Shown one piece after another: positions 4,874 through 64,000 of a stretch of 64,000 nucleotides of DNA (positions within the stretch are counted from its first letter, which is position 1; every line of letters starts with the position of its first letter). The notes beneath the pieces are model-generated. The model worked only from the letters and a program-made list of their open reading frames with translations. It was not told the origin of the DNA and did no database searches. This DNA is from Lytechinus pictus (taxonomy: Eukaryota). Location: positions 27,654,001 to 27,718,000 of the forward strand of contig NC_087251.1 of assembly GCF_037042905.1 (NCBI RefSeq), read 5' to 3'. The position numbers were made by a program, and so were the translations under genes.

Positions 4874-6067
4874 AGTATGATCGTAGCCCATAAACACACC
4901 TATGGTGAATTGTACAATGTACGGTCATCCTATGATCAACGCAGGGGCATCGTGTGATATATCTACGAATTATAGTATGATCGTAGCCCATAAACACACC
5001 TATGGTGAATTGTACAATGTACGGTCATCCTATGATCAGCGCAGGGGCATCGTGTGATATATCTACGATATACAGTATGGTCGTAGCCCATAAACACACC
5101 TATGGTGAATTGTACAATGTACGGTCATCCTATGATCAACGCAGGGGCATCGTGTGATATATCTACGATATACAGTATGATCGTAGCCCATAAACACACC
5201 TATGGTGAATTGTACAATGTACGGTCATCCTATGATCAACGCAGGGGCATCGTGTGATATATTTACGAATTATAGTATGATCGTAGCCCATAAACACACC
5301 AATGGTGAATTGTACAATGTACGGTCATCCTATGATCAGCGCAGGGGCATCGTGTGATATATCTACGATATACAGTATGATCGTAGCCCATAAACACACC
5401 TATGGTGAATTGTACAATGTACGGTCATCCTATGATCAGCGCAGGGGCATCTTGTGATATATCTACGATATACAGTATGATCGTAGCCCTTAAACACACC
5501 TATGGTGAATTGTACAATGTACGGTCATCCTATGATCAGCGCATGGGCATCGTGTGATATATCTACGATATACAGTATGATCGTAGCCCATAAACACACC
5601 TATGGTGAATTGTACAGTGTACGGTCATCATATGATCAGCGCAGGGGCATCGTGTGATATATCTACGATATACAGTATGATCGTAGCCCATAAACACACC
5701 TATGGTGAATTGTACAATGTACGGTCATCCTATGATCAGCGAAGGGGCATCGTGTGATATATCTACGATAAACAGTATGATCGTAGCCCATAAACACACC
5801 TATGGTAAATTGTACAATGTACGGTCATCCTATGATCAACGCAGGGGCATCGTGTGATATATCTACGAATTATAGTATGGTCGTAGCCCATAAACAAACC
5901 TATGGTGAATTGTACAATGTACGGTCATCCTATGATCAGCGCAGATGCATCGTGTGATATTTCTACGAATTATAATATGATCGTAGCCCATAAACACACC
6001 TATGGTAAATTGTACAATGTACGGGCATCCTATGATCAGCGCAGTGCCATCGTGATATTTCTACGAT
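4874..6067. repeat. Tandem array, 100-bp unit, 12 copies
   Basis: TCGTAGCCC(A)TAAACA recurs at 4881, 4981, ... 5981 with an exact 100-bp period; copies differ by only a few substitutions. Confidence 0.98.
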
Positions 6068-21077: not shown

Positions 21078-22045
21078 TTTTATTGTCTCACCTGCATAGC
21101 AGAGTGAGACTATAGGCGCCGCTCTTCCGACGGCGGCGGCGGCGTCAACACCAAATCTTAACCGAAAGTTAAGTTTTTGAAATGACAGCATAACTTAAAA
21201 AGTATACGGACCTAGTTCATGAAACTTGGCCATAAGGTTGATCAAGTATCACTGAACATTCTGTGCAAGTTTCAGGTCACATGACCAAGGTCAAAGGTCA
21301 ATGAACTTTGGCCATAATGGGGGTATCTGTTGAGTTACCATCATAACTTCGAAAGTTTAAGGATCTGATTCATGAAACTTGGACATAAGAGTAATCAAGT
21401 ATCACTGAACATCCTGTGTGAGTTTCAGGTCACATGATTAAGGTCAAAGGTCATGTAAGGTCAATGAACTTTGGCCAAGTTGGGGGTATTTGTTGAATTA
21501 CCATCATAACTTTGAAAGTTTATTGGTCTAGTTCATAAAACTTGGACATAAGAGTAATCAAGTATCACTGAACATCCTTTGCGAATTTCAGGTCACATGA
21601 CCAACGTCAAAGGTCCATGAACTTTGGCAATATGGGGGGTGTCTGTTGAATTACGATAATAACTTTGACAGTTTATAGATCTGATTCATGAAACTTGGAC
21701 ATAAGAGTAATCAAGATCCCGTCAAAGTTTCAGGTCACATGACCAATGTCAAAGGTCATTTAAGTTCATTGAACTTTGGCCATTTTAGAGGTAATCATTA
21801 GATTGCTGTCATAACTTTCAAAGTTTATAGATATAGTGTATAAAATGTGGTTATAGGGGTAATGAAGTATCACTGACAAGTTTTAGGTCACATGATCAAG
21901 GTCAATTGTCAATGAACGTAGTATTGTATCATTATATGAATGGTGTTTTTTGTGAATACTTATTTTATAGTAGTTTTCAAAGTCAGCGCTGCTACTATAT
22001 TGAATCGCGTGATGCAGGTGAGACCGCCAGAGGCATTCCACTTGT
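21078..22045 (+). mobile_element. Non-autonomous Helentron-type element (HINE/DINE-1/Tsp-like) with internal tandem array
   Basis: T-rich start; 13-bp subterminal inverted repeat GTCTCACCTGCAT (21085-21097) / ATGCAGGTGAGAC (22012-22024); second short IR GTGAGAC at 21104; (GGC)n microsatellite; ~4.5 tandem units of 153-163 bp; 3' mini-hairpin GCC-AGA-GGC then CTTGT; no TSD. Confidence 0.85.
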
Positions 22046-47880: not shown

Positions 47881-50210
47881 TGTGGAGATTTGATAAAACA
47901 ATAGAGATGTGGAATTTTTATATATACTTTGGTCCAAATTCAAAAGCAAACATTTTCAATTTGGTTATCTTGACTTAGAAATAAGAACCTGAAATGTCAT
48001 TGGCTTGTAAATGTAACTGCCGCAATTAGTTGTCTGTCGTCGCTGAAATTTTGTATTTTTAAGGACATTTCTGGTTATGTTGCTCATGCATATCACTCTG
48101 GTGCATTAAAAAACGTTAATAAGCAATAATTCATTCATGGTTATCGTGCTTTATTTTTACATTAAAAAGAAACCTAAACTTGCAATTATTTTGAATAAAT
48201 TATTCCATATTTGCATTTGATGATAAACAGCACCTTTTCATATCATACATTATGAATTCTATAATGTATGATAAAAGTAAACTTTACATTTTAAGTGGAA
48301 AACATCCGACTCTTTCACTCCAAATGACTAAAAATAGCTTAAAAAAGAATCATACTTTTCTGGAAGACAGACTTTAAGCGGATTGGACTCTCTTATCTTC
48401 TTGTCTGCTCAATAGAAGCCAACATCCGATGCTCTCCATCAAAATGAGCACCAGTCTGTCGTACTGACGTCACAGATTTATGATACTTCTTTTTTTTCCT
48501 TTACACGCGGGCGCACGTCACAGTAGTCATAGAATCTTCCATTCCACAATGCACAATCAAGCTGTAGCGACAGATATAATGAAAATAGAAAATATTGGTA
48601 GGGTGGCCGCTTAGGGTGGGTGCGTGGGGAGTCAAACACCCATCCTCGTTTATCAAATGAATATGGACTAGAATTTGATTGAAATAAAAATATAGATATG
48701 GTAGATGCGTAGGATGCGTGAGGGAGACAAACATCATGAACCTTCGTTCATTAAAAATACATTTAAAGCTCAAGGCTAGAAAATCAAACAAACAATTTTG
48801 TTTTCTATCATCAACAATCGATATATCTCCCTATTCCCTAAAGAATCATTTGTTCCTCAACAGAGATTGAGTTCGTCATAATCTTTCTCTTTGCGTTTAT
48901 CTTTACACTCAACGTACTCATCAATTTTGTGCTATGCCATCAGAATTATAATTATTATCCCGTTTAAAATTTCATCGATCGTTTTTCATTACCAATTTTC
49001 CGTCTAAAACTCACCGAAGAGATAATACATGTATTACGATCTTTCATCTGAGTTGGATTGTACCGGGATCGTATCGATTTCCTTGACCGTACACAGGGGG
49101 AGGGGTGTGGTGTTTGCAACCGTTTACAACTTTTCACAAAACTCACCCGAAGTTCGTATCAAATCACTCTGCAAAGACTCCAAGCAAAGAGGTAAGTGCT
49201 TAGCACGGTCGCTTCCCCTCAAGATATTTTTGATGTTATTGGGTATCGCCCCCCCCCCCCGCGTCATCCTAATCGATCGAAATCGTTATTGACAGACATG
49301 ATCTAGTGGGCATCAGTTTTCCAGTGATATTCTCTGAATAATTTACCAGACGCCCCCCGCCCCCCACAAAAAACAGGATTTAGTCGTTCATAATAGTCAT
49401 CAAAGAGACCTTCGTCTGATTGATTTTCGACTCAGCTGTTTTAAAGGATATATTTTAGAAGAAGTCTCAGAACTATGATTCGTTTGAAGAGATAATGTTC
49501 TCATATTAATATTTTACCAGAAAACTCCCAACCTTGTGAGTATTATTATCAGTCCATTCAACACCCTCCTCCTTTTACAAGGATCGTTGGATGCTCTTCT
49601 TCCTTTGGTTTCCAAATGCATCATCACGCTATCCTCTCCATCATCCAAAGCAACTTACAACAAGAACACCGCCATCCAGTATGGTCTCCAAACCTCTCAA
49701 GAATCCTCCGTGCATGCCGTGTCGGACTTTTCCCCCCTGAGGTGGGATTGAGACGACGGAAGAAGATTTCACCTGGTGTTTTTATCCGCCACCGGCATCC
49801 CATCCCAGCTCCATTAGTTTTGATTGAATTGTTGTCATTTCCCAATGTCAATAATCACGCCCAACAAAACGGATCCACCTCACATGATGAGAGCGATAGA
49901 TGGAGACGGAATGGCGACATCATCATCTAGGGGTGATTTAGAAAGTGTAAAGTAGTAACACAAATTGTTTGGGAAACTGAATTGCACACTAACAAATCGA
50001 ACACACACACACACCCAAACATTTCATTATCCCGATTCAGTGCCTTAATTGTTCGGTAGTAAATTTACCTTTTTAAATACGGACATCTTGGTTGCCATAG
50101 AGAGATAGCTTCTGCTATTCAAAGAGCAAATGTATAATCTCTTTATTTTTACATAATGTAACATGCGTTAAGATATCAATTCGAGAATTTGGAATAGTAG
50201 CATATGGATA

Positions 50211-50378
50211 CAGGGGGTGCATAAATCCGTTCGTAAGGTACGAGCGACTTTATGAACGACTCTTAAGCCTTTTTTTGTGGTAAATAATATACACTAAATT
50301 TTCGATGATGATGATTTAGCATCTAAAAAAGGATCACCAATCGTCCGTAAAGTCGCTCGTAACTTACGGACACTTTTT
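50211..50378. mobile_element. Degenerate MITE, family C
   Basis: TCCGTTCGTAAGGTACGAGCGACTTTA pairs with TAAAGTCGCTCGTAACTTACGGA; contains the family word AAAGGATCACCA. Confidence 0.75.
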
Positions 50379-51856
50379 ACCAGACGTGAGACTTGGTTAG
50401 CTTTCAGCAGCGTTGCTTCTCTTTCTTTCTTCTTGTCGTCAATAAAGACACGAACGGAGGAGTCGGTATAAACTCATCTGAAATCTTTTGTATTATTAGA
50501 AGCGATTTCGCTAGTGGTTTAGACACTTTTTGCTCACAACATGAACATCGCGGACTTATTTATTAATAGTTCTGTGGACACTTAACCGCCATGGGCACGA
50601 CTCGAGTTGCAACTGTCAGACACATCAAACAAGAATTCATACTCTTTTACATGCTTGGATGTATCAATTTACCAAGTTTGTCGTCTGGCAACATCCCACA
50701 GGGCTGTTTGTCCTGATTTCCTAAAAAGCTCTTCGTTTAGTCAGCCTGCCTCGTGGTAAAAAAAGTGATCTCATTGAAACATTTTTCTTCTTTCTCTCTT
50801 TTGGACATTTTCTTAATTCAAATTGCATTTCTATTTTGTGATATTAGTATAGTGTTTTCTATTGATTAATACTAATCATGTTCGTTTCCAACAGTTGGAA
50901 AAGTGTCATCAGCGTGTTTTGTAGCCCCAAATGTTTCATTCCACTGTGACGCAGGCTATTTTCAAATTGTCCAAGAGATCCATGTCTGATCACCCTAACC
51001 CTTTATATTCCTCTGTTTCTATATTCATATTCCCTTATACACCGCCACCTGTTATTTCGCCTTCATTAGCTTTCCAAGGAGATTTAATAGTATAAACAAG
51101 CCGATGGCGGTCCTTACTCGCAATGTTGACACACATTATGAATAATATTTATTCTACAAAATGAGAACGTTGCATAGGAGGGGGCGAATAATATTCATTA
51201 AGATTCAGTATGAATAATAGCACATAAGTTGTTATATTTATATATAATAATTTGTACGATGTTGATGTGTACCATTTATATTAAAAGGAGCATTGTTTTT
51301 AACAAGCATGTTAGCTTTTAGTGACTCCCCACTTCGTGTAATGTTGATTGTTATAACATGTATTATAATTTTTTTTGGAAATAAAGAAAAAAAATTAAAG
51401 TACCATGTGATCAGCATGCACACAACATATTTCGCACACTTTCACATTTTCTTATGACAATGGCATGGAAAACCTAGAAAATAAGGTTTCTTAGCAAACA
51501 CGGCCCTGGATTAAGGGGGAAAAAGCTGACGCGAAACGATTTTATGGGCACCTAGATATTGATACTTAAAATACGGGCTAAAGTATAAATCGGGACTTGG
51601 CGCTGACAAAATTCAGCTCTGCGTTCTATTGTCACTTTAACTTAAAAAAAATTATCTTTGCCTGGCCGCGAAGCCATTATTCTTAGGTAGTTTCCTTTCA
51701 GGGTCTCGATTCAATTTTGTTTTTGGAAGTAGTACCATAATGTTTTTTTTTTCCTTCTTCTTTTTTATACAATTATACAGATATAAATGGCCCCAAATGT
51801 TTAATGGTTGATTATATGTACCACAAATACGTGTACTTCCGTTTTAGAGTGTTAAC

Positions 51857-51894
51857 TTTTTTTTTTCTTTCCTTTTCCCAACCTCCCTCTGCAG
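51857..51894 (+). promoter_or_regulatory. Polypyrimidine tract and 3' splice acceptor of the receptor coding exon
   Basis: About 35 nt almost purely T/C ending CTGCAG at 51894, 42 nt before the ATG. Confidence 0.8.
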
Positions 51895-51936
51895 TGAGTA
51901 GCTGACTGGTTGGCTTGGCTGGCCTCACGAGTGGCT

Positions 51937-53670
51937 ATGCCGCATACCCTAACTCCTACATCAGCCATATCCACGGCTGGCGTCGTTGGATCCGACTACG
52001 ACTATTTCAGCAGCAATATCTCACTCGACAACAACACAGAGACGGCCCTGCAGCCGTTCGGAGATCACGAACTATGGGAAGCAATCATCATCATTATCAC
52101 CAGTGCCACTATTGCAATCTTCACAGTCAGCGCCAACGTCATGGTGTGGCTGTCCTTCTATATGGACAAACAGCTTCAGGTCGTCAACAATTATTTTATC
52201 CTCAGTCTCGCTACCGCCGATATAATCATCGGCGCCTTGTCTATCCCCATTTACACCTTGTACCTTCTACAGGACGGTTGGAGATTGGGAAATATATTCT
52301 GTGATATCTGGCTGTCCATTGATTATGTCGCATCCAACGCATCCGTCATGAATTTGTGCATCATCTGTTTCGATCGATTCCTGTCAGTGACTCGACCACT
52401 CACGTACAGAGCAAATCGAACTCCAAGGAAAGCTAAAATAATGATTGCGTTGGCCTGGATAGTATCGGTTGTAGTTTGGATACCACTTATTATTGGTTGG
52501 CAATTCTTTTTCAGCGAAGGACGAAACGTACCGGACGACGACTGCTATATTCAGTTTATCAATGATGAAGTTGCGCTTAATGTTTTAACTATACTAATTG
52601 CATTTTATTTACCCGTTGCTCTCATGGGAACACTGTATTACAAAATATGGCGCGAAACAGAAAAGAGGTCTTTGGAGCTCGAGAGACTGCAGGAAGGTGG
52701 TCATACCAGTCCACCTGCCCGCAGACTTCTTTCCAGTGAAGATACGGATGATGAAGTCGGGGTTCGGGTCAGAAGCCAATCAAAGTGTCTCCGTTGTCCT
52801 TGCTGTCTGATAGCCGATTTGGGGGATGAAGATGACGATAGTAGTGATTTAACAATACATCATAACTCACCGTCCACGATGTCTTACTCCGCCAGCCTCA
52901 AGTCACGACGGGGATCAAGAGCACAACCCATCTTACCTCCGGACTCTCCGAGGCACCACACTATCCGAGAATCTCCTAGAAGTGCCACTCAAATGAACGG
53001 TAATCTCGCCTCAGCGGAAAACAACTCCAATGATAATAATAAAAGCTTCGCTGCCTCTCTTTATACCATTCTCATAAAGCTACCGGATGAAAGTCCCAAT
53101 GCGAGCGAAGAGGACAAACTCCCTAAAATTACCATGGTGGAGGAATCGCCTCAAAGAGAACAGTCCTTGATTCAAGATCAAGAAGGAACTCGCCTCATGC
53201 CACCGGAAACAAACGGAACTGAAAAATCTAGATCGAACTCAGTAGCTAGTAACAACAAAGCACCTGCCAACAGTCAGTCTAATCTTAGTATAAGCACTAT
53301 CTCGATGGTTAATAAGATGGCAAGTCGCGCCAAAACCAACGTGAATCGCAAACGAAAGTCGCAATTGATACGAGAAAAGAAGGCAGCAAGAACACTATGT
53401 GCTATTCTACTAGCCTTCATCATCACATGGACTCCGTATAGTATATTGGTGCTCATTTCTTTTAGCGGATTCAGCAACGCGGCCGTCTCCAAAAGTTTCG
53501 AAGTCGCATATTGGCTGTGTTACCTAAACAGCACATTAAATCCAATTTGTTATGCATTATGCAATGCAACTTTTCGCAGAGCCTTTAAAAGAATTCTTAC
53601 GTGCCAGTGGACACCTCGTCACCGGCGGCAACACAAGCAACGTCAGCATGCGAGAAGACGGGAAAGATGA
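51937..53670 (+). CDS. CHRM: Muscarinic acetylcholine receptor, M1/M3/M5-like (Gq-type) class A GPCR, 577 aa, intronless coding region
   Basis: Seven hydrophobic segments; TM3 CDIWLSIDYVASNASVMNL with D3.32/Y3.33; DRF-LSVTRPLTYR; ECL2 CYIQF; AFYLPV; long third intracellular loop; EKKAARTL; TWTPY; YWLCYLNSTLNPICYALCN; N-terminal N-glycosylation sequons. Start set at ATG 51937 because the track start at 51910 is TTG and an in-frame TGA lies at 51895. One-to-one orthology to a vertebrate subtype is not claimed. Confidence 0.97.
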   Translation: MPHTLTPTSAISTAGVVGSDYDYFSSNISLDNNTETALQPFGDHELWEAIIIIITSATIAIFTVSANVMVWLSFYMDKQLQVVNNYFILSLATADIIIGALSIPIYTLYLLQDGWRLGNIFCDIWLSIDYVASNASVMNLCIICFDRFLSVTRPLTYRANRTPRKAKIMIALAWIVSVVVWIPLIIGWQFFFSEGRNVPDDDCYIQFINDEVALNVLTILIAFYLPVALMGTLYYKIWRETEKRSLELERLQEGGHTSPPARRLLSSEDTDDEVGVRVRSQSKCLRCPCCLIADLGDEDDDSSDLTIHHNSPSTMSYSASLKSRRGSRAQPILPPDSPRHHTIRESPRSATQMNGNLASAENNSNDNNKSFAASLYTILIKLPDESPNASEEDKLPKITMVEESPQREQSLIQDQEGTRLMPPETNGTEKSRSNSVASNNKAPANSQSNLSISTISMVNKMASRAKTNVNRKRKSQLIREKKAARTLCAILLAFIITWTPYSILVLISFSGFSNAAVSKSFEVAYWLCYLNSTLNPICYALCNATFRRAFKRILTCQWTPRHRRQHKQRQHARRRER

Positions 53671-54202
53671 AATGAGGCATGCCTCTGAATTCAGAGTCAT
53701 ATGCACTGCCAGAGCTTAATTGCTTTTTATTCTGCCAGCAAATCTACATTAGATAGAATATGCGATTATGTGAAGGTGTAAATGCACATTATTTTATTCA
53801 AGACAGACGAAACAATCGAGTCACTCATATCTCAACGTACTTGTAATTTCTACTGAAGACACAGGTTCAAACGTTCAAAAAGTTTCACGTCATCATGATT
53901 CACTGGTATCTTCTTGATAAGAAACCTGGTTTACCTTCCCCGTCGATAACCCTGTCTACTCTCTCCTGATAAACATTTCAATTCATTTTAAACCATTCTT
54001 CTAACAACGATGTAGTCAAGGTTATCGAAATTCTGGCAGTTAATATGACTCTGATCCAGAGAGCATGAACCATGACTTCACAATCGCTGATCTGTCGTAT
54101 ATAGATGGATGGACAAGAACATTCAATGTCATTCTCGAGGCCTGCTCTTTTCGACTGGAGCGTAAGTACTACATCATATGCAGGTGTGGTACATGGAAGA
54201 TA

Positions 54203-54337
54203 GGGAGGGTTTCATGAAGCATCGTATCTGTAATTTTCACTTACAATTATGCTCTCAGCCAATCAGGTACAATGCTTTCGGTAGCTTGCAACAGTGGACA
54301 GAAAAGCTCACTGACATTGCGCTTTGTGAACCACCAG
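54203..54337. mobile_element. Degenerate short MITE, family E
   Basis: GGGAGGGTTTCATGAAG ... CAGCCAATCAGGTACAATGCTTTCGGTAGCTT ... CTTTGTGAACCACC. Confidence 0.55.
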
Positions 54338-54352
54338 TCGAGTGTATTACGT

Positions 54353-54487
54353 GGAGCTTTCATGAAGCGTCATGTCAGGGATTGCCCCCCAGCAACTGGT
54401 TAAGCTACTATAATCATTGGATCTGATTGGCCAAAAGTATATTTGGCAGAGAAAACATCTTACAACGAGCTTCTTGAAAGGATGCCC
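54353..54487. mobile_element. Degenerate short MITE, family E, inverted relative to its neighbour
   Basis: GGAGCTTTCATGAAG ... AAGCTACTATAATCATTGGATCTGATTGGC ... CTTCTTGAAAGGATGCCC. Confidence 0.5.
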
Positions 54488-57400
54488 AAAGGTACAAAAT
54501 CATCTCGGATTTGTTGATCGAATCAGGAGCAACAGACCACAGTATAAAAGGCTGACGCAGTCTTCCTTCATTTTCGTGCACTTTTATTGTATGAAACTCT
54601 CAAGATTGTATTTTTTGATCACGTGTAGTCACACTTTGATATGCTTTGACGAATGCTATGTTACGTTTACCGTACGACCTAATATGTTTTACAGAGATAA
54701 ATTATATTTCTAGCATCTAATATATATTCATGGTATAGTGTCAAGAATGGTAATTCCCAAAGATAAATGTTGTATTCGTTTTACAGAAATAGTATGTCAT
54801 TTCGATCAATGAAGATCATCCCACTGATGTTTGCCAACTTAATACAATGTCATACTACCTTTTAAACAAAAGTATGACATCAAGGAAAAATATTATTAAT
54901 ATCGTTGTTTTTTTATGAATGTACTACCTTCTGTCCACGCATGGTCTAAACATCGGTAATTTATTTACCGAAAGGGTGTCAACTTTCCCTTACCGCTTCC
55001 GGCCCACCAACTAGTCATCGTATGGTACTACTTATGATACGATTTTAATGATTTGAAGGGGGAAAAAACCGTTATAAAATGACAACATGAATATCATCGA
55101 AGCATGATAGAAGATTAGGCTGAATTTCAATATCACCATTTGGGGTAGTACAAGTCGTATCCAACACAATGTGTCGTCGTTGAACTCGCATTCAACTATA
55201 AACCGTAAGAATGGGCGAGATCCTACCTTGCAAAATTATTTATTTTCTTGCCGAAATATAATAGTCATGGTTCGGAGACTATAACCTATGTATTTTCATC
55301 ATTCGATTTCGTCGGTATTTTGTTCTTTAATGTAGAGATTGCACGACCAAAAAGTAATTTATCTTGCCAGTATTATATTCGACTTGTCGCGCACAAAAGT
55401 AATCAACTCTTGATTAATATTTTGCATTCTTTCTATACTTTTATCTATGCTGAATATCTCTATCAATCTAAAGTGTTCTCCGAATAATAGATTTCTCGTT
55501 TACATTTCAGTAAAATATCTTGCAATCACTCCAGGCGCTTTTATGCCTCTATAGTTGTATTGTCAGTGCATTCAAAACGCCTTTCGGCAATAGAAATTTA
55601 CTTAAATTATGGTGGTTTTTTTCATGTCATGTCGTTGGCCCATTTCTCGATATGCTTCGGGAATTTTTATTGTTCAATATCCAAAGTCGTTGATTCAATA
55701 AGGAAAAGTATGCAGTTTATTTGGAAGCAATCGAGACCGAAATGTTTCACTTTTCTTTGTCGCAACCGAGGTGCATTCCTGCTCGCTGGACGTCGGCGTT
55801 TCACCGCAAATTGGACATGACACAGCGGGGCAGCTGTGCAGAGGTAAACTTGAGAGATGAGCTGATACTCTTCGACGCTTTCCTAAAGTGTCAGTTACCA
55901 TTTTGCACCCTCCAAGCAAAGCGTTGGTATTCAATTAACATTCTGTCACGGCAACGTGGGAAGTGTTCTGGTCACTTCTTTTTATCTCGAGTCAAATAAT
56001 TGCCTTGTTTACTAATGCCATTTCAAATACACCAGAAGCAGAGAGAACATCCAGTCATATACAACTTCGATGTAATATCAAACACCCGTTTAAGGGGTCG
56101 AATATCACATTCACCTTTCCCTCCAAAATGTAAAGACGAAACTCCCATTGGGTCTGACTAGCTCTCTTCATGACCTCTTTCCCCCCATTTCTCCAATGTA
56201 CATGATGAAAATAAAAGCCTCGAATCAAGCGGTTGAATCATCTAAAAGATATAAGGTTGATCTTTGATTTCTTCTTTAACTCAATTCCAATTACCAAGCC
56301 GTATATAGAATTTATGAGTTATTGATTTTTCTTCAAATTGGTATTCTTATTGAAAGTGATATGAACTATTGTCCCGTTCAAAAGAAGATACGATGGGCCG
56401 ACTTTAATCTTCGGCAAAACGAGAGACATCGCAATGACGAGATATTGAATGTTCAGCATAGACTTCGACTACCAGACTACTCTGACCTTTCCCCCAAAGG
56501 CATCTAAAACTATATAAAATATATTTGACTTCAATGACGAATCGGGGAAATCAGACTTTACATGACTACTATCTTTTCTTTTTACTTTGGAGTCACACCC
56601 CCACCCCCCCCCCCCCCCTCCCACGAGATATGGCACTGCATGGTAACGACATTCCGATTTGAGATAAGTTCCTTGTTGCATTTAAGTGAGAACATTTAAT
56701 AAAAATAAAGTGTACAATAATATATCATCATGCAAGGGTCTTATATTCCATTGAGTTACAACCCCAAACAACCATCTAACATAAAAGACTAGTAAAATTA
56801 TGACTTTGACAATGTTATTTCAGGATATGATTTTTTCTTAGAAAGCACATGATAATGCTTTTCTATCACTTCAGTTAATGTTTTTATAAAATCAAAATGT
56901 ACTTGGAAAGGGTATGATCATGTTAAACAGATGGCCTTATTAATTAACCGTTACCATACTTTCACTTTGATCTGGAACGAAGCCAAACGCTGGCAGAGAG
57001 GGACGACTACCCCTTCCATATCCTTGTTGGGAAAGCAGGATATACTACAAAGAATATTCCTATTTCATTTATAATAAAAGTGACGTCAAAATATTATGTA
57101 TTTTTTCCTAATCCTATCAAAATACCCTTGAACTACCCCTGACATTAACAATCGCAGCAATACGACAACCGTTAAATTCATGCACACGCTCCATTGACTG
57201 GTTTGACGAAATACTAACTAAGCTTGACAGTGACTTGTAAGATAGATGCTTTACTAACTCTACTAATTTTGAATTCCACTGGCCTTCATCAATGAGGTGC
57301 AAAACTCAAGACTTGCGAAGCGCATATAGGACTGAGGAAGACATTGTATGACCAATTTTCGAGAATTCTTGTGACTGGCTCCTTACAAAACGGCATATAT

Positions 57401-58424
57401 TCGGATAGTCAACCACATACCATGACAAGTGACAACAAACAGATGAACGCACAGAACGCCAAGAGATCATGAGCTTAAACTTCTAAACAAAAACTCATGA
57501 CAAAATTAACGGTTAACCCCTCAAACTTAGTACTTACGGACTTTACCGAAAATAGCGAAAGACTTGTGAACTGTGAACTTAAAAGTGGTTTTCGTTATTA
57601 AAGCTGCATCGATTTTTTTTCTTTCAATACTAGGACTGACTAGATATGCTAGAAAATCACGAAAAAAAATTACTTAACGGACTTTTCCTTCAGATAATGT
57701 TGGCACCAGACAAGCGCTAAGGAAGAGAAGATTCCGCGTCATGTGCTAGGTTGTGGAATCTGAAGCTCCATTTTCTCAGCGGATATGTTGCAGTATGCTG
57801 GACTGGTTTGGTCTTTCCCTGCAGTTGGATACGATATATCTCCCCTAAAGAAATATTAACAATATACGAATAGGACTATATTGATGATTATTGATCGAAA
57901 AAGGTAACTTCACAAAATGACAGGCGACCGTGGTAACAACGACTTTAAAAGAAATATTAACAAACAATGAACGACTAAACATGACACTCATGCGTTGAAT
58001 TTGTAACGTATAGACGAACACAATGATTACTGAAGACCACTCCAGAAAAAGCTAACCAGCAAAGTGACGAATACTTCACCGTAAACTTAAAGGACCGACT
58101 AAACGTATTCCAGCTTGGTAGTTGACGGAACTCGTCACAGACAGGCAAGGACAAAACCTAATGTGTATTTACAAAGATTGACTAAGTGTTACACGACAGA
58201 CTAACGTGATGACCAACACTCAACGAACTACCTCCTGTAAGCAAATTGACTAAACCCTGACAAACCCTATACCTGGAAACTTCGGATGACCATGCTGAAC
58301 ATTTTCCTCGACAGGGCGTACGCCTGTTACTTAGTACCTTGATATTTGACACAACTTGTAATGATACTGCCCATTGCCAAAACAAGCATTTACCTTTCAT
58401 TATCTAGTCCAATTTTTAGAACAT

Positions 58425-58576
58425 GGGAGCGTTTCCTGAAAGGATTTGTAAGACATTTTATCCGACAAGTCTTGTTTTATCCGACAGTTATCTTACGAAC
58501 TATGGTTCCCAGCCAATCAATATCAAGGAAAGCCAGATCTGACAACTTGTCAGACGAATGATGAAACGCTCCCCTG
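58425..58576. mobile_element. Short MITE related to family E
   Basis: GGGAGCGTTTC pairs perfectly with GAAACGCTCCC; CAGCCAATCA core; internal TTTTATCCGACA duplication. Confidence 0.75.
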
Positions 58577-59418
58577 TAAATCGGCTTTAGTGTAAGTTAG
58601 TTGACACAGCCCAAAATGACGACTTACATCAACGACTGGTGACTTGACATCAAATTTATCAAAAGGACCATATTAAGAATATGCCAACAGGGTTAACCCT
58701 GTATCGAGGCTCCAGGACTGGTGCACAGTAGCAATAAATACTGACAAAACTATTACATGGGCATGATGTTACTGGAACGAAATCACATGCTCTTTTTTCA
58801 AACCTTTAAAGTGAACAGACACTTTTAAAAATGAACGAACTTGCAGGAAAAATTAAAGAATGACGAGTTTTATATTGGCAAACCTTACGGAACATTTACG
58901 GTTGTTTTTACATACTTTACGTTTTGGGTAATAATAAACGTTTGTGAATGAAAATATGTTCAGTGGTGATAAGAGTCAATTGACAAGACCTGTTTACCAT
59001 TAGGACTTGGTAAAAATATCACTCGGACAAATTGCTCGTTTAGCTCGTACTGCGAAAAAAGATACCTGCCTTTCATTAAATTTGCACACAACAGCCATTT
59101 AACTACAAAAGAGAACTTAATCATTTTCTTGTCGACTCATTATCCACAAAGGATTGGTTTAAGCAAATTACAGACAATGTATTGATGATATGACTTAAAT
59201 TTCGCCGGTTTCAAGTAATAGACCGTTAACTTTACCATCCATTCTGGAAGACTGTTTCTGTGTCCTTCTGTGACGTAAACTTTACGTTTAGGAAGCAACT
59301 TCATGAACGTTGACACGAAACAAAACATAGTGCCTTCGTTCTTGACATGGAGTAGTCCGACAACATACATAATCTCACCCAGGTGACTAGACTGGACTCC
59401 ACAAAACCTGCCTTATTT

Positions 59419-60210
59419 CTACTACTACTACTACTACTACTATACTACTACTACTACTACTACTACTACTCCTAGTATTATACTACTACTACTAATACTA
59501 CTACTCCTACTACTACTACTACTCCTACTACTACTCCTACTAGTACTACTACTACCATTGGTTTATTTATAATTCGTCTAATGTCAGTTTGTCCAATTGC
59601 CAAATCGTTTACTATGATTTGGTCTACCATCAGTTCATCCACTATCCATATGGTATAATTGCCAGTTCGTCCACTCACCATTTCATCTAATAACCAGTTG
59701 GTCCAATAGCCATTTTGTCCATATATCATTTGATCTATAATTGGACAAAGTGTTAATTGTGCAAAATGAATGAAAATGAAATGGATATTAGACCAACTGG
59801 TTATGAGACGAAATGATCATAGACGAAATGGTAATTAATCGAAGTGATGATTGGACCAAGTGATTTTTGGACCAAATGGTTGTTAGACGAAATGTTGATG
59901 GCATTAGACTAAATTAAAATAGCCAATGTGATGAGTGGACGAGTTGGGAGTAGACGAATTGGCAGTTTACCCTACCATTACTACTACTGCTGCTGCTGCT
60001 TCTACAACAACAACAACAACTACTACTACTACTACCACTACTACTACTATTACTGTTACTTTTACCATTACTACTACTACTAATGCTACTGCTACTACTA
60101 ATTTCTACTTCTACTACTACTACTACTACTACTACTATTACTGTTACTTTTACCATTATTACTACTACTAATGCTAATACTACTACTACTGCTACTACTA
60201 ATTTCTACTT

Positions 60211-60244
<34 letters not shown>

Positions 60245-60490
60245 CGTACTACTAATACTACAACACCTACTCCTACAATTACTTCTATTACTACTGCTCT
60301 TATTAATACTACTCTCCTATTACTATTACACCTACTTTTATTAATATTACTCCTACTATAAGTATTATTACTATTAATATCAATACTTCTTCTACTACTA
60401 CTACTTCTACTACTACTACTGCTACTACTATACTCATATTACTACTACTACTGATACTGCCAGTACTACTACAGCTACTAATATTACCAC
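59419..60490. repeat. Degenerate (TAC)n trinucleotide field, interrupted by an insertion
   Basis: CTA/TAC repeats at 59419-59559 and 59972-60490; internal duplication of ATTACTGTTACTTTTACCATTA...CTAATTTCTACTTCTAC at about 60049 and 60137. Confidence 0.95.
59560..59971. mobile_element. 412-bp foldback-type non-autonomous element with 8-bp TSD
   Basis: Flanked by the direct repeat CTACCATT (59552-59559 and 59972-59979); termini GGT...AATTCGTCTA / TAGACGAATT...ACC; ~15-bp subrepeats in mirror orientation in the two halves. Confidence 0.85.
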
Positions 60491-62379
60491 CTTGACTTCT
60501 ACGGGTTAACAATGCTGATGCATGTCATTCCAGATATTAATACAAAGACTTCAAGATCAGTGACTACTTATAGGAAGCTCATTTAATCACAAACCTGACA
60601 CATATGATCTCTAATGAGCACGAGCCTGGAACAAAAACACGGCCTGATTCAAGAAGAGAAATAAGACTAAGGATAACGTTTTATTATGAAATGGAGATGC
60701 ACATAATCAGAACACTAATGAAATCCATCAGTAATTGAGGACCTTTGACAGATTTGACATGCAGACTTAACACACGGTTTTCTGTATTTCTTAAACACTG
60801 AAGACAGTTTACTGTGTATATGTCTTGGATATAAAGCTGCATTTTCCGAATAAACTGAAGTTAATTTGAACAAGGACGTACCTTGACTTTTTATGGAATT
60901 GAAACCTAGAATCATCTACGACCGATTTTTCCAAAACTTACACTACTTAAATCGTATCATCGTAGGACAGCGTATAAACATGGACTCCTATTACTTTCAA
61001 GACCAATGAATTAATCTATAACAAGACAAGTGACTTTCTCGAGCAGATGAATAACCAAATTAACCGACTCTGACAATTTCAGTGAGTCTTGTGCATGTGT
61101 AAAGTAACTACATTAACTTCTAGTAAAAGCGGTGTTCGACTTGTCACGGCTAACCATAATTGATAACCATATATACCGGCTTCTTGGACGTACCTGATTG
61201 TGCTTAGCGCAGATCGACTGCATGCTTTACTTTCGAAACAGTGGCCTACAACACTTACCAACCCTCCTAGCCGTATACTTACAGTACTCTGGTGAAGACT
61301 CCGAACTGACACCCGGACTGGCACAGTCTCCATCTGCTTAAAATAAGCAGCAATACAGTACTATATAGACATAACAAGACAGCACGGCTAAAAATCTGCC
61401 AATTTCTGTGGTCTTCTAGAGCCTATATTAACCCATGGAAAAGATTACATGAAAATCTTGGTTTGGTTTATTATACATTCTTTTAACTGACATGAAGATT
61501 GTCTCTTATATGATGTACTGACACGGATTGTTCCGAGTAGACCTATTTGTTAATTGTACCACTACGTAGTCACTTCTAAATTTTAGGACTTCCGATCTGC
61601 TCTCAAATGAACCAAGAGGTTATTTCAACTAATGATTCATTTTGAATTATTCAACAAATATATTGGGATACAACGAAGAACAATGGAAATATCTCTGATT
61701 AATTACCAGAGAGTCCCTTTGACTCCCAACTTGACTGAAACTTGCACAATGATCACGAGATTATGATACGACAAACCATTCACACGTTAATCCTAAAGCT
61801 TGACAGACTGTTAGCTTGAGAAAAGGGGCTGACTATACGTAGGTAAAACTAATATATTGTAGGTAACTTGAAGATATCCTATATTCTGCAGATTATAATT
61901 GTGTAAAGTAAAGATATGTTTTGTAACATATCTTTACTAATTTTCAATTAATGTCTTGAGAGTATTTTACCCATACTACATGTATTTTCATACAGTAGTC
62001 GACTTTGATCTTTGACAATCAATTCATGAAATGTTATTAACTTGTCTCTATCCAACCATACTTGCCATTGTAACTGAAGAACCTTTTGTCTAAGGACTTA
62101 CGATCAGGCTTACGATATACAGAATATCTAAATAAACATTATTCTTAATTTGGAATGACTTTTCCAAGTGGACCTTTATAATAAATGACCAAGTGTAAGT
62201 CAATATCCTACGACCATACCCTTACCAAAAACTTGGGAGGCAGGGGCATTATACTATCGCACGGAGTTGCAAAGGACAAAAACAAAAATGAAATCGGACT
62301 ATTTTTGACCGCCAACAAATTCCCTGACCAATGTAACTATTCCGAATCCGGAACACATGATTGTGACATTACGCAAAAC

Positions 62380-62819
62380 TATGACGGGCCGTTCATGCCA
62401 TAAGCCGTCATTCATTCACTCACTCGAGCATGTCGAGTGAGTGAATGATTTGTACGTTTTTTACCATCACTCACTCGGGAAGGGGAATGATTGTACAGTT
62501 TTATCCAATCAGAGAGCTAGAATCGTAATCGAGACCCCTCACTGAAGTAGTAGTACATCCATTCGAGTGGATGTACAACCACTCGACTGAATGTTCAACC
62601 ACTCGAGTGAGTGTACAACCACTCGAGTGAGTGTACAACCACTTTTGTGATGGAGGGGGGAGGTCTTGATAAAGATTCTAGCTCTCTGATTGGATAAAAC
62701 TGTTCAATCACGCACTCTCCCGAGTGAGTGATGGTAAAAAAATGTGCAAATCATTCACTCACTCGACATGCTCGAGTGAGTGAATGAATGACGGCTTGTG
62801 GCATGAACGGCCCGTCATA
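62380..62819. mobile_element. 440-bp near-perfect palindromic MITE, TA at both ends
   Basis: TATGACGGGCCGTTCATGCCA ... TGGCATGAACGGCCCGTCATA; arms pair for ~145 bp; centre has 20-bp tandem units GTACAACCACTCGAGTGAGT. Confidence 0.93.
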
Positions 62820-63037
62820 CAAAACGCCGCATGTATACATTCACTCGGACAGAACTTTGACGTTATACAACATGCCTTGGAACTTGCTGTATTGTAACTC
62901 GGATGATATTCTGACTTTATTACATTTCAATATCTCAATATTGAAGATTAGTTTTATCAATGTTATTAAGTATAACGACTACTTTTTATGAAGTTTACTA
63001 TAATACCATTTAAAAGAATTTTAAAAGATAAACCTTT

Positions 63038-63043
63038 AATAAA
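63038..63043 (+). other. Candidate distal polyadenylation signal AATAAA
   Basis: AATAAA near where the GACT-rich composition appears to fade; other AATAAA hexamers occur upstream (e.g. near 56700, 57073, 58733, 62131), so the assignment is weak. Confidence 0.25.
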
Positions 63044-63060
63044 GTATCTTTCTACCAGTA

Positions 63061-63150
63061 CCAGTCAGTTGCCTCACCGGCGACTGACTGGAATACTCCC
63101 CAGGAAGTGGAGAATTTGCTTTGCATACATTGTGTGCGGGAATGACTGAT
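63061..63150 (+). repeat. Hairpin-containing fragment, possible SINE remnant
   Basis: CCAGTCAGTTGCC-TCACC-GGCGACTGACTGG forms a 13-bp stem (one G-U) with a 5-nt loop, followed by ATACTCCCCAGGAAGTGGAGA; SINE origin is from recollection only. Confidence 0.35.
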
Positions 63151-64000
63151 TGAATCCGATTCTTAGACAGATTGGTTTCTTTAAAAGATGCATTTACTTT
63201 ATACGTTTCTCAATCATAAACATTCTATAATTATCTTTGTTCAGATATTATTGGCTCGTCTGTATCAAGAAATTGTTGCGTTTGATTATCAAATGTTCTT
63301 GATGCTAAAAATTTCAAGGGACTTGGAGTAGCAAAGATCCACCTGGGCGTTCGGCTTAATATCATTTATGGCGCAGATGCAGACAAATTAAAGAAACCTA
63401 ACCACTCCCCAAGTAAGACACACTGTTTATGCCGCTTTACAGAGCAATCTACACCGCTGTTATGACCGGCATCCCTTTTGTTATTCCTTTTAATGAAAAG
63501 TGCCACTTTGATGATGAAAAGTAAAAAAAAAAATGAAGAGCGAGAACTCATCTCCTGATATACAATTTCACTCAGACCTGTCGGGCGCACATTTGATATA
63601 TTTCTCAAAAAATGAAGTACGGTCCGTGACGTCATAAACTGGCATGGAAACCAAACAATATAATCATACTAGAGAACGTTTTCCTTGCAGGGACTTCAGC
63701 TAGAGAGCTGGAAATTATAATGCCTTGATATTCAAGGCAATTTCGCCACAGAAAAAAAAAGAAAATTAAATCCTTCTTCTGATCTCATTCATTATTTTGT
63801 TTGATTCAATCTTGAGTTTGAAGGAAAGAGAGAAGAAAAATGGGAGTCGCCCAATTTAATCAGGAGAAAAACATCAAAGAATTGACTTTGCCATTCCATC
63901 ATGACTGTTTGGGGATACCATGCACTTTAGCCATTGATTCTTTTTGATGCAATTGAAACCAGGATAAGTGAGGGTTGTCCAAAATAAGATGTTTTGCGCT

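Follow-up and report, generated by a model that had tools for sequence, protein, structure and literature searches.

The closest described counterparts of the sequence reported here are the DRACH-type sites in long last exons at which METTL3-METTL14 forms N6-methyladenosine (m6A). At the base before the methylated A (position -1), purified METTL3-METTL14 prefers G>A>U>C; the C after that A (+1) is fixed, and pyrimidines at -1 showed no enrichment over mock in vitro (bioRxiv 10.64898/2026.10.16.759739; our statements on this and the other cited papers refer to portions of their text). The yeast, mouse and human writer also prefers A at -4 and U at +4. In planarians the sites that are methylated well are DRACW (PMC13594981), and in the sea cucumber, an echinoderm, m6A is found in 3' untranslated regions (UTRs) at RRACH (PMC11556200); a peak of m6A around the stop codon is reported for vertebrates, planarian and sea cucumber (PMC13594981, PMC11556200). 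Under the exon-junction-exclusion model, m6A is placed by default on suitable words far from splice junctions (PMC13594981). A gain of DRACH on the sense over the antisense strand of human processed pseudogenes has been read as positive selection (PMC8201931), and observed/expected (o/e) ratios of DRACH in nine animals, none of them an echinoderm in the portions of the paper considered, have defined "DRACHen" transcripts (PMC13629450). The protein RBM45 reads the same core word: its RRM1 and RRM2 each recognise GAC, and RNA with several GAC words is preferred (PMC7968997). Here we describe a 64,000-nt window of the sea urchin Lytechinus pictus genome (contig NC_087251.1) in which GAC words are about threefold in excess on one strand of a domain with sharp limits. 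The domain lies behind the coding sequence of a muscarinic acetylcholine receptor gene, probably in the distal part of its 3' UTR.

All coordinates are positions in this window, and background means both strands of its first 51.8 kb. A first-pass annotation of the sequence had counted 16 GACT words against one AGTC in 57,301-58,260, and our recount gave exactly these numbers. For the longer stretch in which the annotation had seen the pattern, 57,100-63,050, we masked two microsatellites and two palindromic inserts before counting, which left 4,480 nt. There, GAC occurs 131 times and its reverse complement GTC 25 times (binomial P = 1.5e-18), compared with 478 GAC and 534 GTC in the first 51.8 kb of the window. 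The plus strand also carries more AC (408, against 187 GT), GACT (53, against 11 on the minus strand), TGAC (58 against 9), GGAC (25 against 4) and GAAC (29 against 5). As a composition control we used 300 dinucleotide shuffles of the region, a conservative choice because the AC excess is retained in them. Over these shuffles DRACH is in excess (188 versus 155 expected, z = 4.1), DGACH more so (98 versus 62, z = 5.5), and GGACT occurs 14 times versus 4.7 expected. DRACH on the minus strand is not enriched over the shuffles (57 versus 62), so the skew withstands composition control on the plus strand alone. Among the words listed by the first-pass annotation, GACT, GGAC, TGAC and GAAC are all in excess; AAAC is only 1.4-fold above background and DAACH is flat over the shuffles (90 versus 93, z = -0.4), and the signal is centred on GAC.

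A two-rate change-point fit placed the domain at 56,396-63,167, with the start between 56,296 and 56,456 and the end between 62,326 and 63,467 within two log-likelihood units. The skew proposed earlier is thus real, while its limits shift: it starts at ~56,300-56,450 and ends at ~62,300-63,500. For the domain taken as 56,400-63,170 (plus strand; 5,149 nt of unique sequence) we counted 147 GAC on the plus strand and 27 on the minus strand, a GAC frequency 2.9-fold above background and a density of about one GAC per 35 nt. The excess recurs in separate unique segments: 62 GAC versus 8 in 56,400-58,424 (3.1-fold), 27 versus 4 in 58,566-59,418 (3.2-fold), 50 versus 14 in 60,486-62,379 (2.7-fold) and 8 versus 1 in the tail of the domain at 62,821-63,170. 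The second and third of these correspond to the stretches 58,600-59,400 and 60,500-62,350, through which the pattern had been said to continue. Post-hoc choice of the region does not explain the excess, because background windows never reach its values: 214 background windows of 2 kb gave z between -3.3 and +2.5, and the region reaches 6.6; no background window of 5,149 nt has more than 79 GAC or GTC, compared with 147 in the domain; and the strongest trinucleotide strand z in such windows is 4.6, versus 9.1 in the domain.

The excess is graded by neighbouring base. At -1, fold enrichment over background runs GAC 2.9 > AAC 1.6 > TAC 1.5 > CAC 1.0, and the same G/A/T/C profile appears in each of the three larger segments (3.1/1.8/1.4/1.0, 3.2/1.6/1.4/1.0 and 2.7/1.6/1.6/1.1). 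At +1, C alone is enriched (GAC 2.9; GAT 0.76, GAA 0.95, GAG 0.73). At +2 the order is GACT 4.9 > GACA 2.6 > GACC 2.0 > GACG 1.6, with GACG still above background. The signal is therefore NGACW, its -1 preference follows the in-vitro G>A>U>C order of METTL3-METTL14, and its +2 preference is U>A>C>G. Over the whole domain DRACH occurs 203 times, versus 62 on the opposite strand (o/e 1.73 versus 0.74), or 39 per kb compared with 18 in the background. The non-methylable control words DRCCH, DRGCH and DRTCH have o/e of 1.16, 0.70 and 0.70. Beyond GAC and its neighbours, no 4-, 5- or 6-mer exceeds a second-order model of the region, apart from a poly-C run. Two further biases lie outside the writer code described in the cited literature: C is depleted at the third base past the A of GAC (14 of 147, P = 0.001 versus local composition, without correction), as is G at the third base ahead of it (15 of 146, P = 0.035).

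The domain lies downstream of an intron-free coding sequence (CDS) at 51,937-53,670 on the plus strand, and the GAC excess is on the sense strand of that gene, as the first-pass annotation had stated. The 577-amino acid product has an exact match in NCBI, is identical at 572 of 577 positions to Lytechinus variegatus XP_041468593.1 and at 527 of 577 to Strongylocentrotus purpuratus XP_030855368.1, and matches Pfam 7tm_1, the class A G-protein-coupled receptors, with E = 1.1e-59. Its best PDB matches are the M3, M5 and M1 receptors (E = 1e-105 to 1e-92), compared with 1e-54 for histamine receptors. Judged by these sequence matches, the gene is a sea-urchin muscarinic acetylcholine receptor. The CDS lies in the last, coding exon, which follows a splice acceptor with a polypyrimidine tract and CAG (51,861-51,894, plus strand; AG at 51,893-51,894).

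The proximal part of this exon lacks the excess. The CDS and the ~2.7 kb past the stop codon (51,896-56,299) contain 48 GAC and 72 GTC, a lean in the opposite direction (P = 0.035), and the GAC count of this first part, 48 in 4,505 nt, differs from the 147 in 5,122 nt of the domain with P = 1.5e-10. DRACH o/e is 0.74 in the CDS and 0.79 in the proximal 3' UTR (53,671-56,399, plus strand), and CDS, proximal UTR and upstream DNA together span 0.74-0.93. The proximal UTR has 14.7 DRACH per kb and no GGACT. The last exon thus consists of a motif-neutral or motif-poor half followed by a motif-dense half. The first AATAAA past the stop codon, a candidate proximal poly(A) signal, lies just ahead of the change point (56,210-56,215), and further AATAAA words follow at 56,698, 56,704 and 57,073. 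Another AATAAA by the end of the skew (63,038-63,043) is a candidate distal signal that, if used, would give a 3' UTR of ~9.4 kb. Within the proximal UTR, a 23-nt inverted repeat (53,691-53,713 and 54,032-54,054) begins 20 nt past the stop codon, its arms 91% complementary and 318 nt apart.

Among 18 sequencing runs, 15 contained part of 54,001-64,000, none of these 15 being catalogued as RNA, and we aligned four (X1, X5, X16 and X17) to 48,511-59,410. X5, from a second organism, yielded contigs over 51,894-54,432, 54,442-57,993 and 58,193-59,393 (contigs 9, 10 and 11) with depths of 15.2, 13.7 and 13.1. Contig 9 begins at the acceptor, at 51,894, and carries 51 additional letters with no match on 48,511-59,410; the upstream intron has no contig depth besides repeats. 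We take X5 to be spliced RNA because a contig starts at the splice acceptor and the intron bins are empty. The 51 letters joined to 51,895 represent a 5' exon whose place would be upstream of 48,511. Contigs 9 and 10 cover the proximal UTR together with pieces from X1, contig 10 crosses the change point without a break into the first GAC-dense segment, and contig 11 covers the second. X1, which bears the organism label of the runs that contain most of the stretch, gave shorter contig pieces with holes, at a depth of 4-7, over the CDS and 55,434-58,574, including pieces in the first segment at 57,083-58,574. The contigs of these two runs show no intron-like joint and a level depth from the CDS to ~59.4 kb, which supports one long last exon extending from the CDS to at least 59,393. 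The level contig depth across the change point suggests that the long form is dominant in X1 and X5. For the sequence beyond 59.4 kb there is a hint from X1: this run contains a fraction of 0.62 of the words sampled from 54,001-64,000, although the aligned part makes up 54% of that query and has holes in X1. This points only indirectly to transcription through to ~63.2 kb, which would include the third segment. The first-pass proposal of a 3' UTR of up to ~9 kb is supported by contigs from the CDS to 59,393, and has only this indirect support between 59.4 and 63.2 kb. X5 also differs at 57,253-57,272, inside the first GAC-dense segment, where 68 other letters replace an 18-nt stretch.

X16 and X17 are raw reads from rRNA-depleted (ribosomal RNA-depleted) samples, of which ~6% of each run's reads were examined. 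Whole-fitting reads made up 5 of 1,781 aligned in X16 and 4 of 1,811 in X17, and the gene is barely expressed in both. The first mate of the whole reads in the CDS is always on the minus strand. We dropped reads at 57,762 as strand evidence, as ~170 letters in four reads amounted to ~40-nt partial matches, and both X1 and X5 have a second contig at that place.

We also examined base pairing and conservation. The pairing partners of GAC are thinned relative to background for GTC (0.54, P = 2.7e-4) and GTT (0.75), with GTA at 1.0. The predicted unpaired probability at GAC is 0.52 in the domain versus 0.39 and 0.37 in controls; this predicted accessibility follows from word content alone, because folding is not weaker than in dinucleotide shuffles, and no RNA structure beyond composition was found against these shuffles. 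Between the two organisms, three aligned pieces of the domain diverge by 5.3, 10.4 and 7.6%, compared with 2.1% for CDS and proximal UTR; synonymous-site divergence is at least ~4% (16/390, from the 21 CDS differences listed). A metagenome scan for orthologous 3' flanks gave 148 pattern matches and five loci, whose 3' flanks measure between 2 and 1,378 nt. The GAC/GTC skew was not found in the three longer flanks (11/15, 9/12 and 21/23), which are too short and distant for a signal that starts 2.7 kb off.

We favour, as the probable explanation, selection that is spread over the distal 3' UTR and promotes numerous accessible m6A sites, kept as a density rather than as a conserved sequence. The stretch would be the distal two-thirds of a ~9-kb 3' UTR in a single long last exon of the receptor mRNA, one molecule running from the CDS to ~63,060. 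Selection would act word by word for N-G-A-C-W sites that METTL3-METTL14 can methylate and leave the sequence itself free to change, and the thinning of GUC and GUU would keep the GAC sites single-stranded. Exon-junction exclusion would not shield the domain, because splice junctions are thousands of bases away, and motif density would therefore set the m6A load. YTH proteins are m6A readers, and readers of this type would in turn adjust how stable the long isoform is, where it is localised or how well it is translated. Planarian m6A can be stabilising or destabilising depending on cell type, and in the urchin the receptor mRNA could likewise be affected either way. A more speculative extension, which we regard as doubtful, is a kilobase-scale "m6A domain" that is set by word density alone, through numerous accessible NGACW sites and a shortage of words complementary to them, and switched by the choice of poly(A) site: cleavage near ~56,210 would give a motif-poor short mRNA, and cleavage near ~63,040 a motif-dense long one. 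Such a domain would escape conservation scans, because it would be kept through rapid sequence turnover.

Several observations weigh against selection for m6A sites. In the word profile, C is tolerated at -2, where U is best (TGAC 3.5, GGAC 2.9, CGAC 2.6 and AGAC 2.3-fold; over shuffles, z = 4.7, 3.0, 1.6 and 0.5), GGACA is weak (1.4-fold), TAC at 1.5-fold is above the in-vitro expectation, and both A at -4 (55 of 146, P = 0.34) and U at +4 (38 of 146, P = 0.41) are at local composition. The excess starts ~2.7 kb past the stop codon, and DRACH is not enriched close to the stop, the o/e of CDS and proximal UTR being low. Folding energy is not weaker than in dinucleotide shuffles (mean z = 0.13 in 32 windows). 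Because its divergence of 5-10% is at or above the synonymous-site level, there is no sequence-level constraint on the domain. No one contig covers the whole stretch, and the contigs are strandless. Finally, judged from read depth, the whole raw reads of X16 and X17 are confined to the CDS (52,151-53,242), and the 5.7 kb that follow on the 3' side have none; assuming even cover, chance would produce this pattern with a probability of 1e-2 to 7e-4 for three to five independent fragments. On thin evidence, this hints that these two samples contain a shorter 3' end and not the long isoform. The m6A interpretation of the first-pass annotation is in this way only partly upheld: the graded -1, +1 and +2 preferences fit the writer, but the word is NGACW instead of canonical GGACU/DRACH, and the CGAC tolerance, the weak GGACA, the absent -4A and +4U and the skipped stop-proximal 2.7 kb do not fit it.

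The same long 3' UTR could instead hold sites for a methylation-independent GAC-binding protein, RBM45-like or another urchin protein, which we judge unlikely. The bare trinucleotide core with its weak -2 preference, the absence of the writer's flank preferences at -4 and +4, and the preference of RBM45 for multiple GAC words (PMC7968997) would all suit such a protein. RBM45 targets are described as GACGAC, ACGC and GGGACGGU (PMC7968997), but of the four GACN words in the domain GACG has the smallest enrichment (1.6-fold), GACGAC occurs twice versus 0.7 expected (P = 0.15), and the gaps between GAC words are Poisson-like (coefficient of variation 1.1). A second word, ACTAAY, which we take to be a QKI/STAR-type motif, occurs 9 times versus 2.5 expected; this excess is gone once trinucleotide content is modelled. 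No longer word stands out besides the poly-C run, and the motifs of Nova, Musashi, Pumilio, Rbfox, IMP and SRSF7, AU-rich elements and cytoplasmic polyadenylation elements are not enriched. Similarly unlikely, in our estimate, is an origin without selection on RNA, through an old decayed insertion, expansion of simple sequence or a local strand-biased mutation process. The domain shows no conservation above neutral, it is a single locus whose background is the window itself, and within it lie two AC-containing microsatellites of like orientation, which show that slippage does generate sequence at this place. Yet the same graded profile appears on either side of the 1-kb repeat block. A simple strand flip is disfavoured because GAC and GTC combined are at 1.7 times background, and transcription-linked mutation bias is disfavoured because it would be expected to skew the intron and the exon's first 4.5 kb as well, and on that strand neither is skewed. 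We also looked for the decayed retroelement that the first-pass annotation had named as an alternative source. None of 12 read-through frames matched a Pfam family (E up to 0.1), there is no periodicity (top lag z = 2.9 among 599 lags) and no second copy within the window, and contig depth is flat and single-locus except at the inserts. A decayed repeat thus has no support in Pfam, Rfam, self-match or depth, in searches that did not include a eukaryotic repeat library.

Another alternative that we hold to be similarly unlikely is a separate or separable RNA from the same strand: the stretch could be a long non-coding RNA, or distal UTR sequence that only a long isoform uses. The sharp change point right after the first AATAAA, the confinement of whole raw reads to the CDS in two runs, and the breaks of 9 nt between X5 contigs 9 and 10 and of 200 nt between contigs 10 and 11 would be expected for such an RNA. 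Against it, contig 10 is unbroken over the change point, depth is level across all three X5 contigs and steady in X1, and no Rfam family matched at gathering score. The four weak microRNA-hairpin matches that Rfam returned are far below gathering score and all lie on the palindromic inserts. We also rejected a hidden coding sequence, for which there is no frame bias (GAC gaps modulo 3: 49/49/45) and no Pfam family, and avoidance of splice sites, as GTRAG, YAG and AG are near background.

Several repeats interrupt the domain and were left out of the counts. A short multi-copy insert resembling a miniature inverted-repeat transposable element (MITE) at 58,425-58,565 has loose ends at 58,425, 58,490 and 58,534, together with a spike in depth, in all four aligned runs. 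It is followed by a (CTA)n microsatellite (59,419-59,555), a palindromic element with a 16-bp unit (59,575-59,970; 10 GAC and 7 GTC) and a (TAC)n microsatellite (59,979-60,485). On the plus strand these microsatellites read TAC and CTA, the sense of the AC excess, and contain no GAC. A palindromic MITE-like insert at 62,380-62,820 has no skew (5 GAC, 4 GTC); its arms of 83 and 80 nt are 96% complementary, its core is a 20-bp tandem, and as part of an mRNA the element (62,380-62,819) would form a long hairpin. Upstream of the receptor exon, the first 51.8 kb of the window has no long open reading frame and an excess of T over A, as a long intron of the receptor gene might show, and contains two tandem arrays, at 4,874-6,067 (12 copies of a 100-bp unit, 94% matched) and 21,189-21,876 (153-bp unit).

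Whether m6A sites are mostly selected or incidental is an open question for the field under exon-junction exclusion. A bounded, strand-specific, ~3-fold excess that follows the base preferences of the writer in otherwise near-neutral sequence would directly show, at the sequence level, selection on m6A load in bulk, and the domain offers a concrete test substrate in a tractable animal. If such domains are common, they and the long UTRs that carry them could be mapped from DNA alone by the GAC/GTC strand ratio, and the word profile would reveal the specificity of the echinoderm writer.

Compared with RBM45 targets, the urchin domain shares multiple GAC words but not the bias towards GACG and GACGAC (PMC7968997), which show the weakest enrichment in it. 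The sense-strand gain of DRACH in human pseudogenes is likewise strand-asymmetric, with antisense as the neutral control and single sites poorly conserved; in the portions of that study considered, it is genome-wide and tied to the decay of pseudogene RNA (PMC8201931), while the urchin domain is one stretch with sharp limits, in the probable 3' UTR of an echinoderm gene for a functional receptor. DRACHen transcripts, which include neuronal terms and have motifs in CDS and 3' UTR, also carry DRACH above composition, whereas their metric, as those portions describe it, is computed per transcript with no strand control or internal boundary (PMC13629450). The peak of oyster genic DRACH o/e is 1.16 (PMC13629450) versus 1.73 in the urchin domain, by formulas that are not strictly identical. 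In a search of the main texts of mostly open-access literature, we found no sea-urchin m6A map, no work on this receptor's UTR and no bounded distal domain this strong. With METTL3-METTL14 sites in long last exons the domain has in common a GAC core on the sense strand, the preferences G>A>U>C at -1, for C at +1 and for U or A at +2, and probably a place in a long terminal exon far from junctions (PMC13594981; bioRxiv 10.64898/2026.10.16.759739). Unlike METTL3-METTL14 maps, which in the portions considered peak near the stop codon, the urchin words are confined to the distal 6.8-kb domain, and this domain tolerates C at -2 and lacks -4A and +4U. The domain resembles an m6A-site-rich last exon and departs from one in three secondary features (-2, -4/+4 and the stop codon), and is a candidate member of that class. 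DRACH-rich transcripts and sense-strand DRACH gain were already known; a bounded, GAC-dense domain in a probable distal 3' UTR is, as far as our search reached, a new form of such enrichment.

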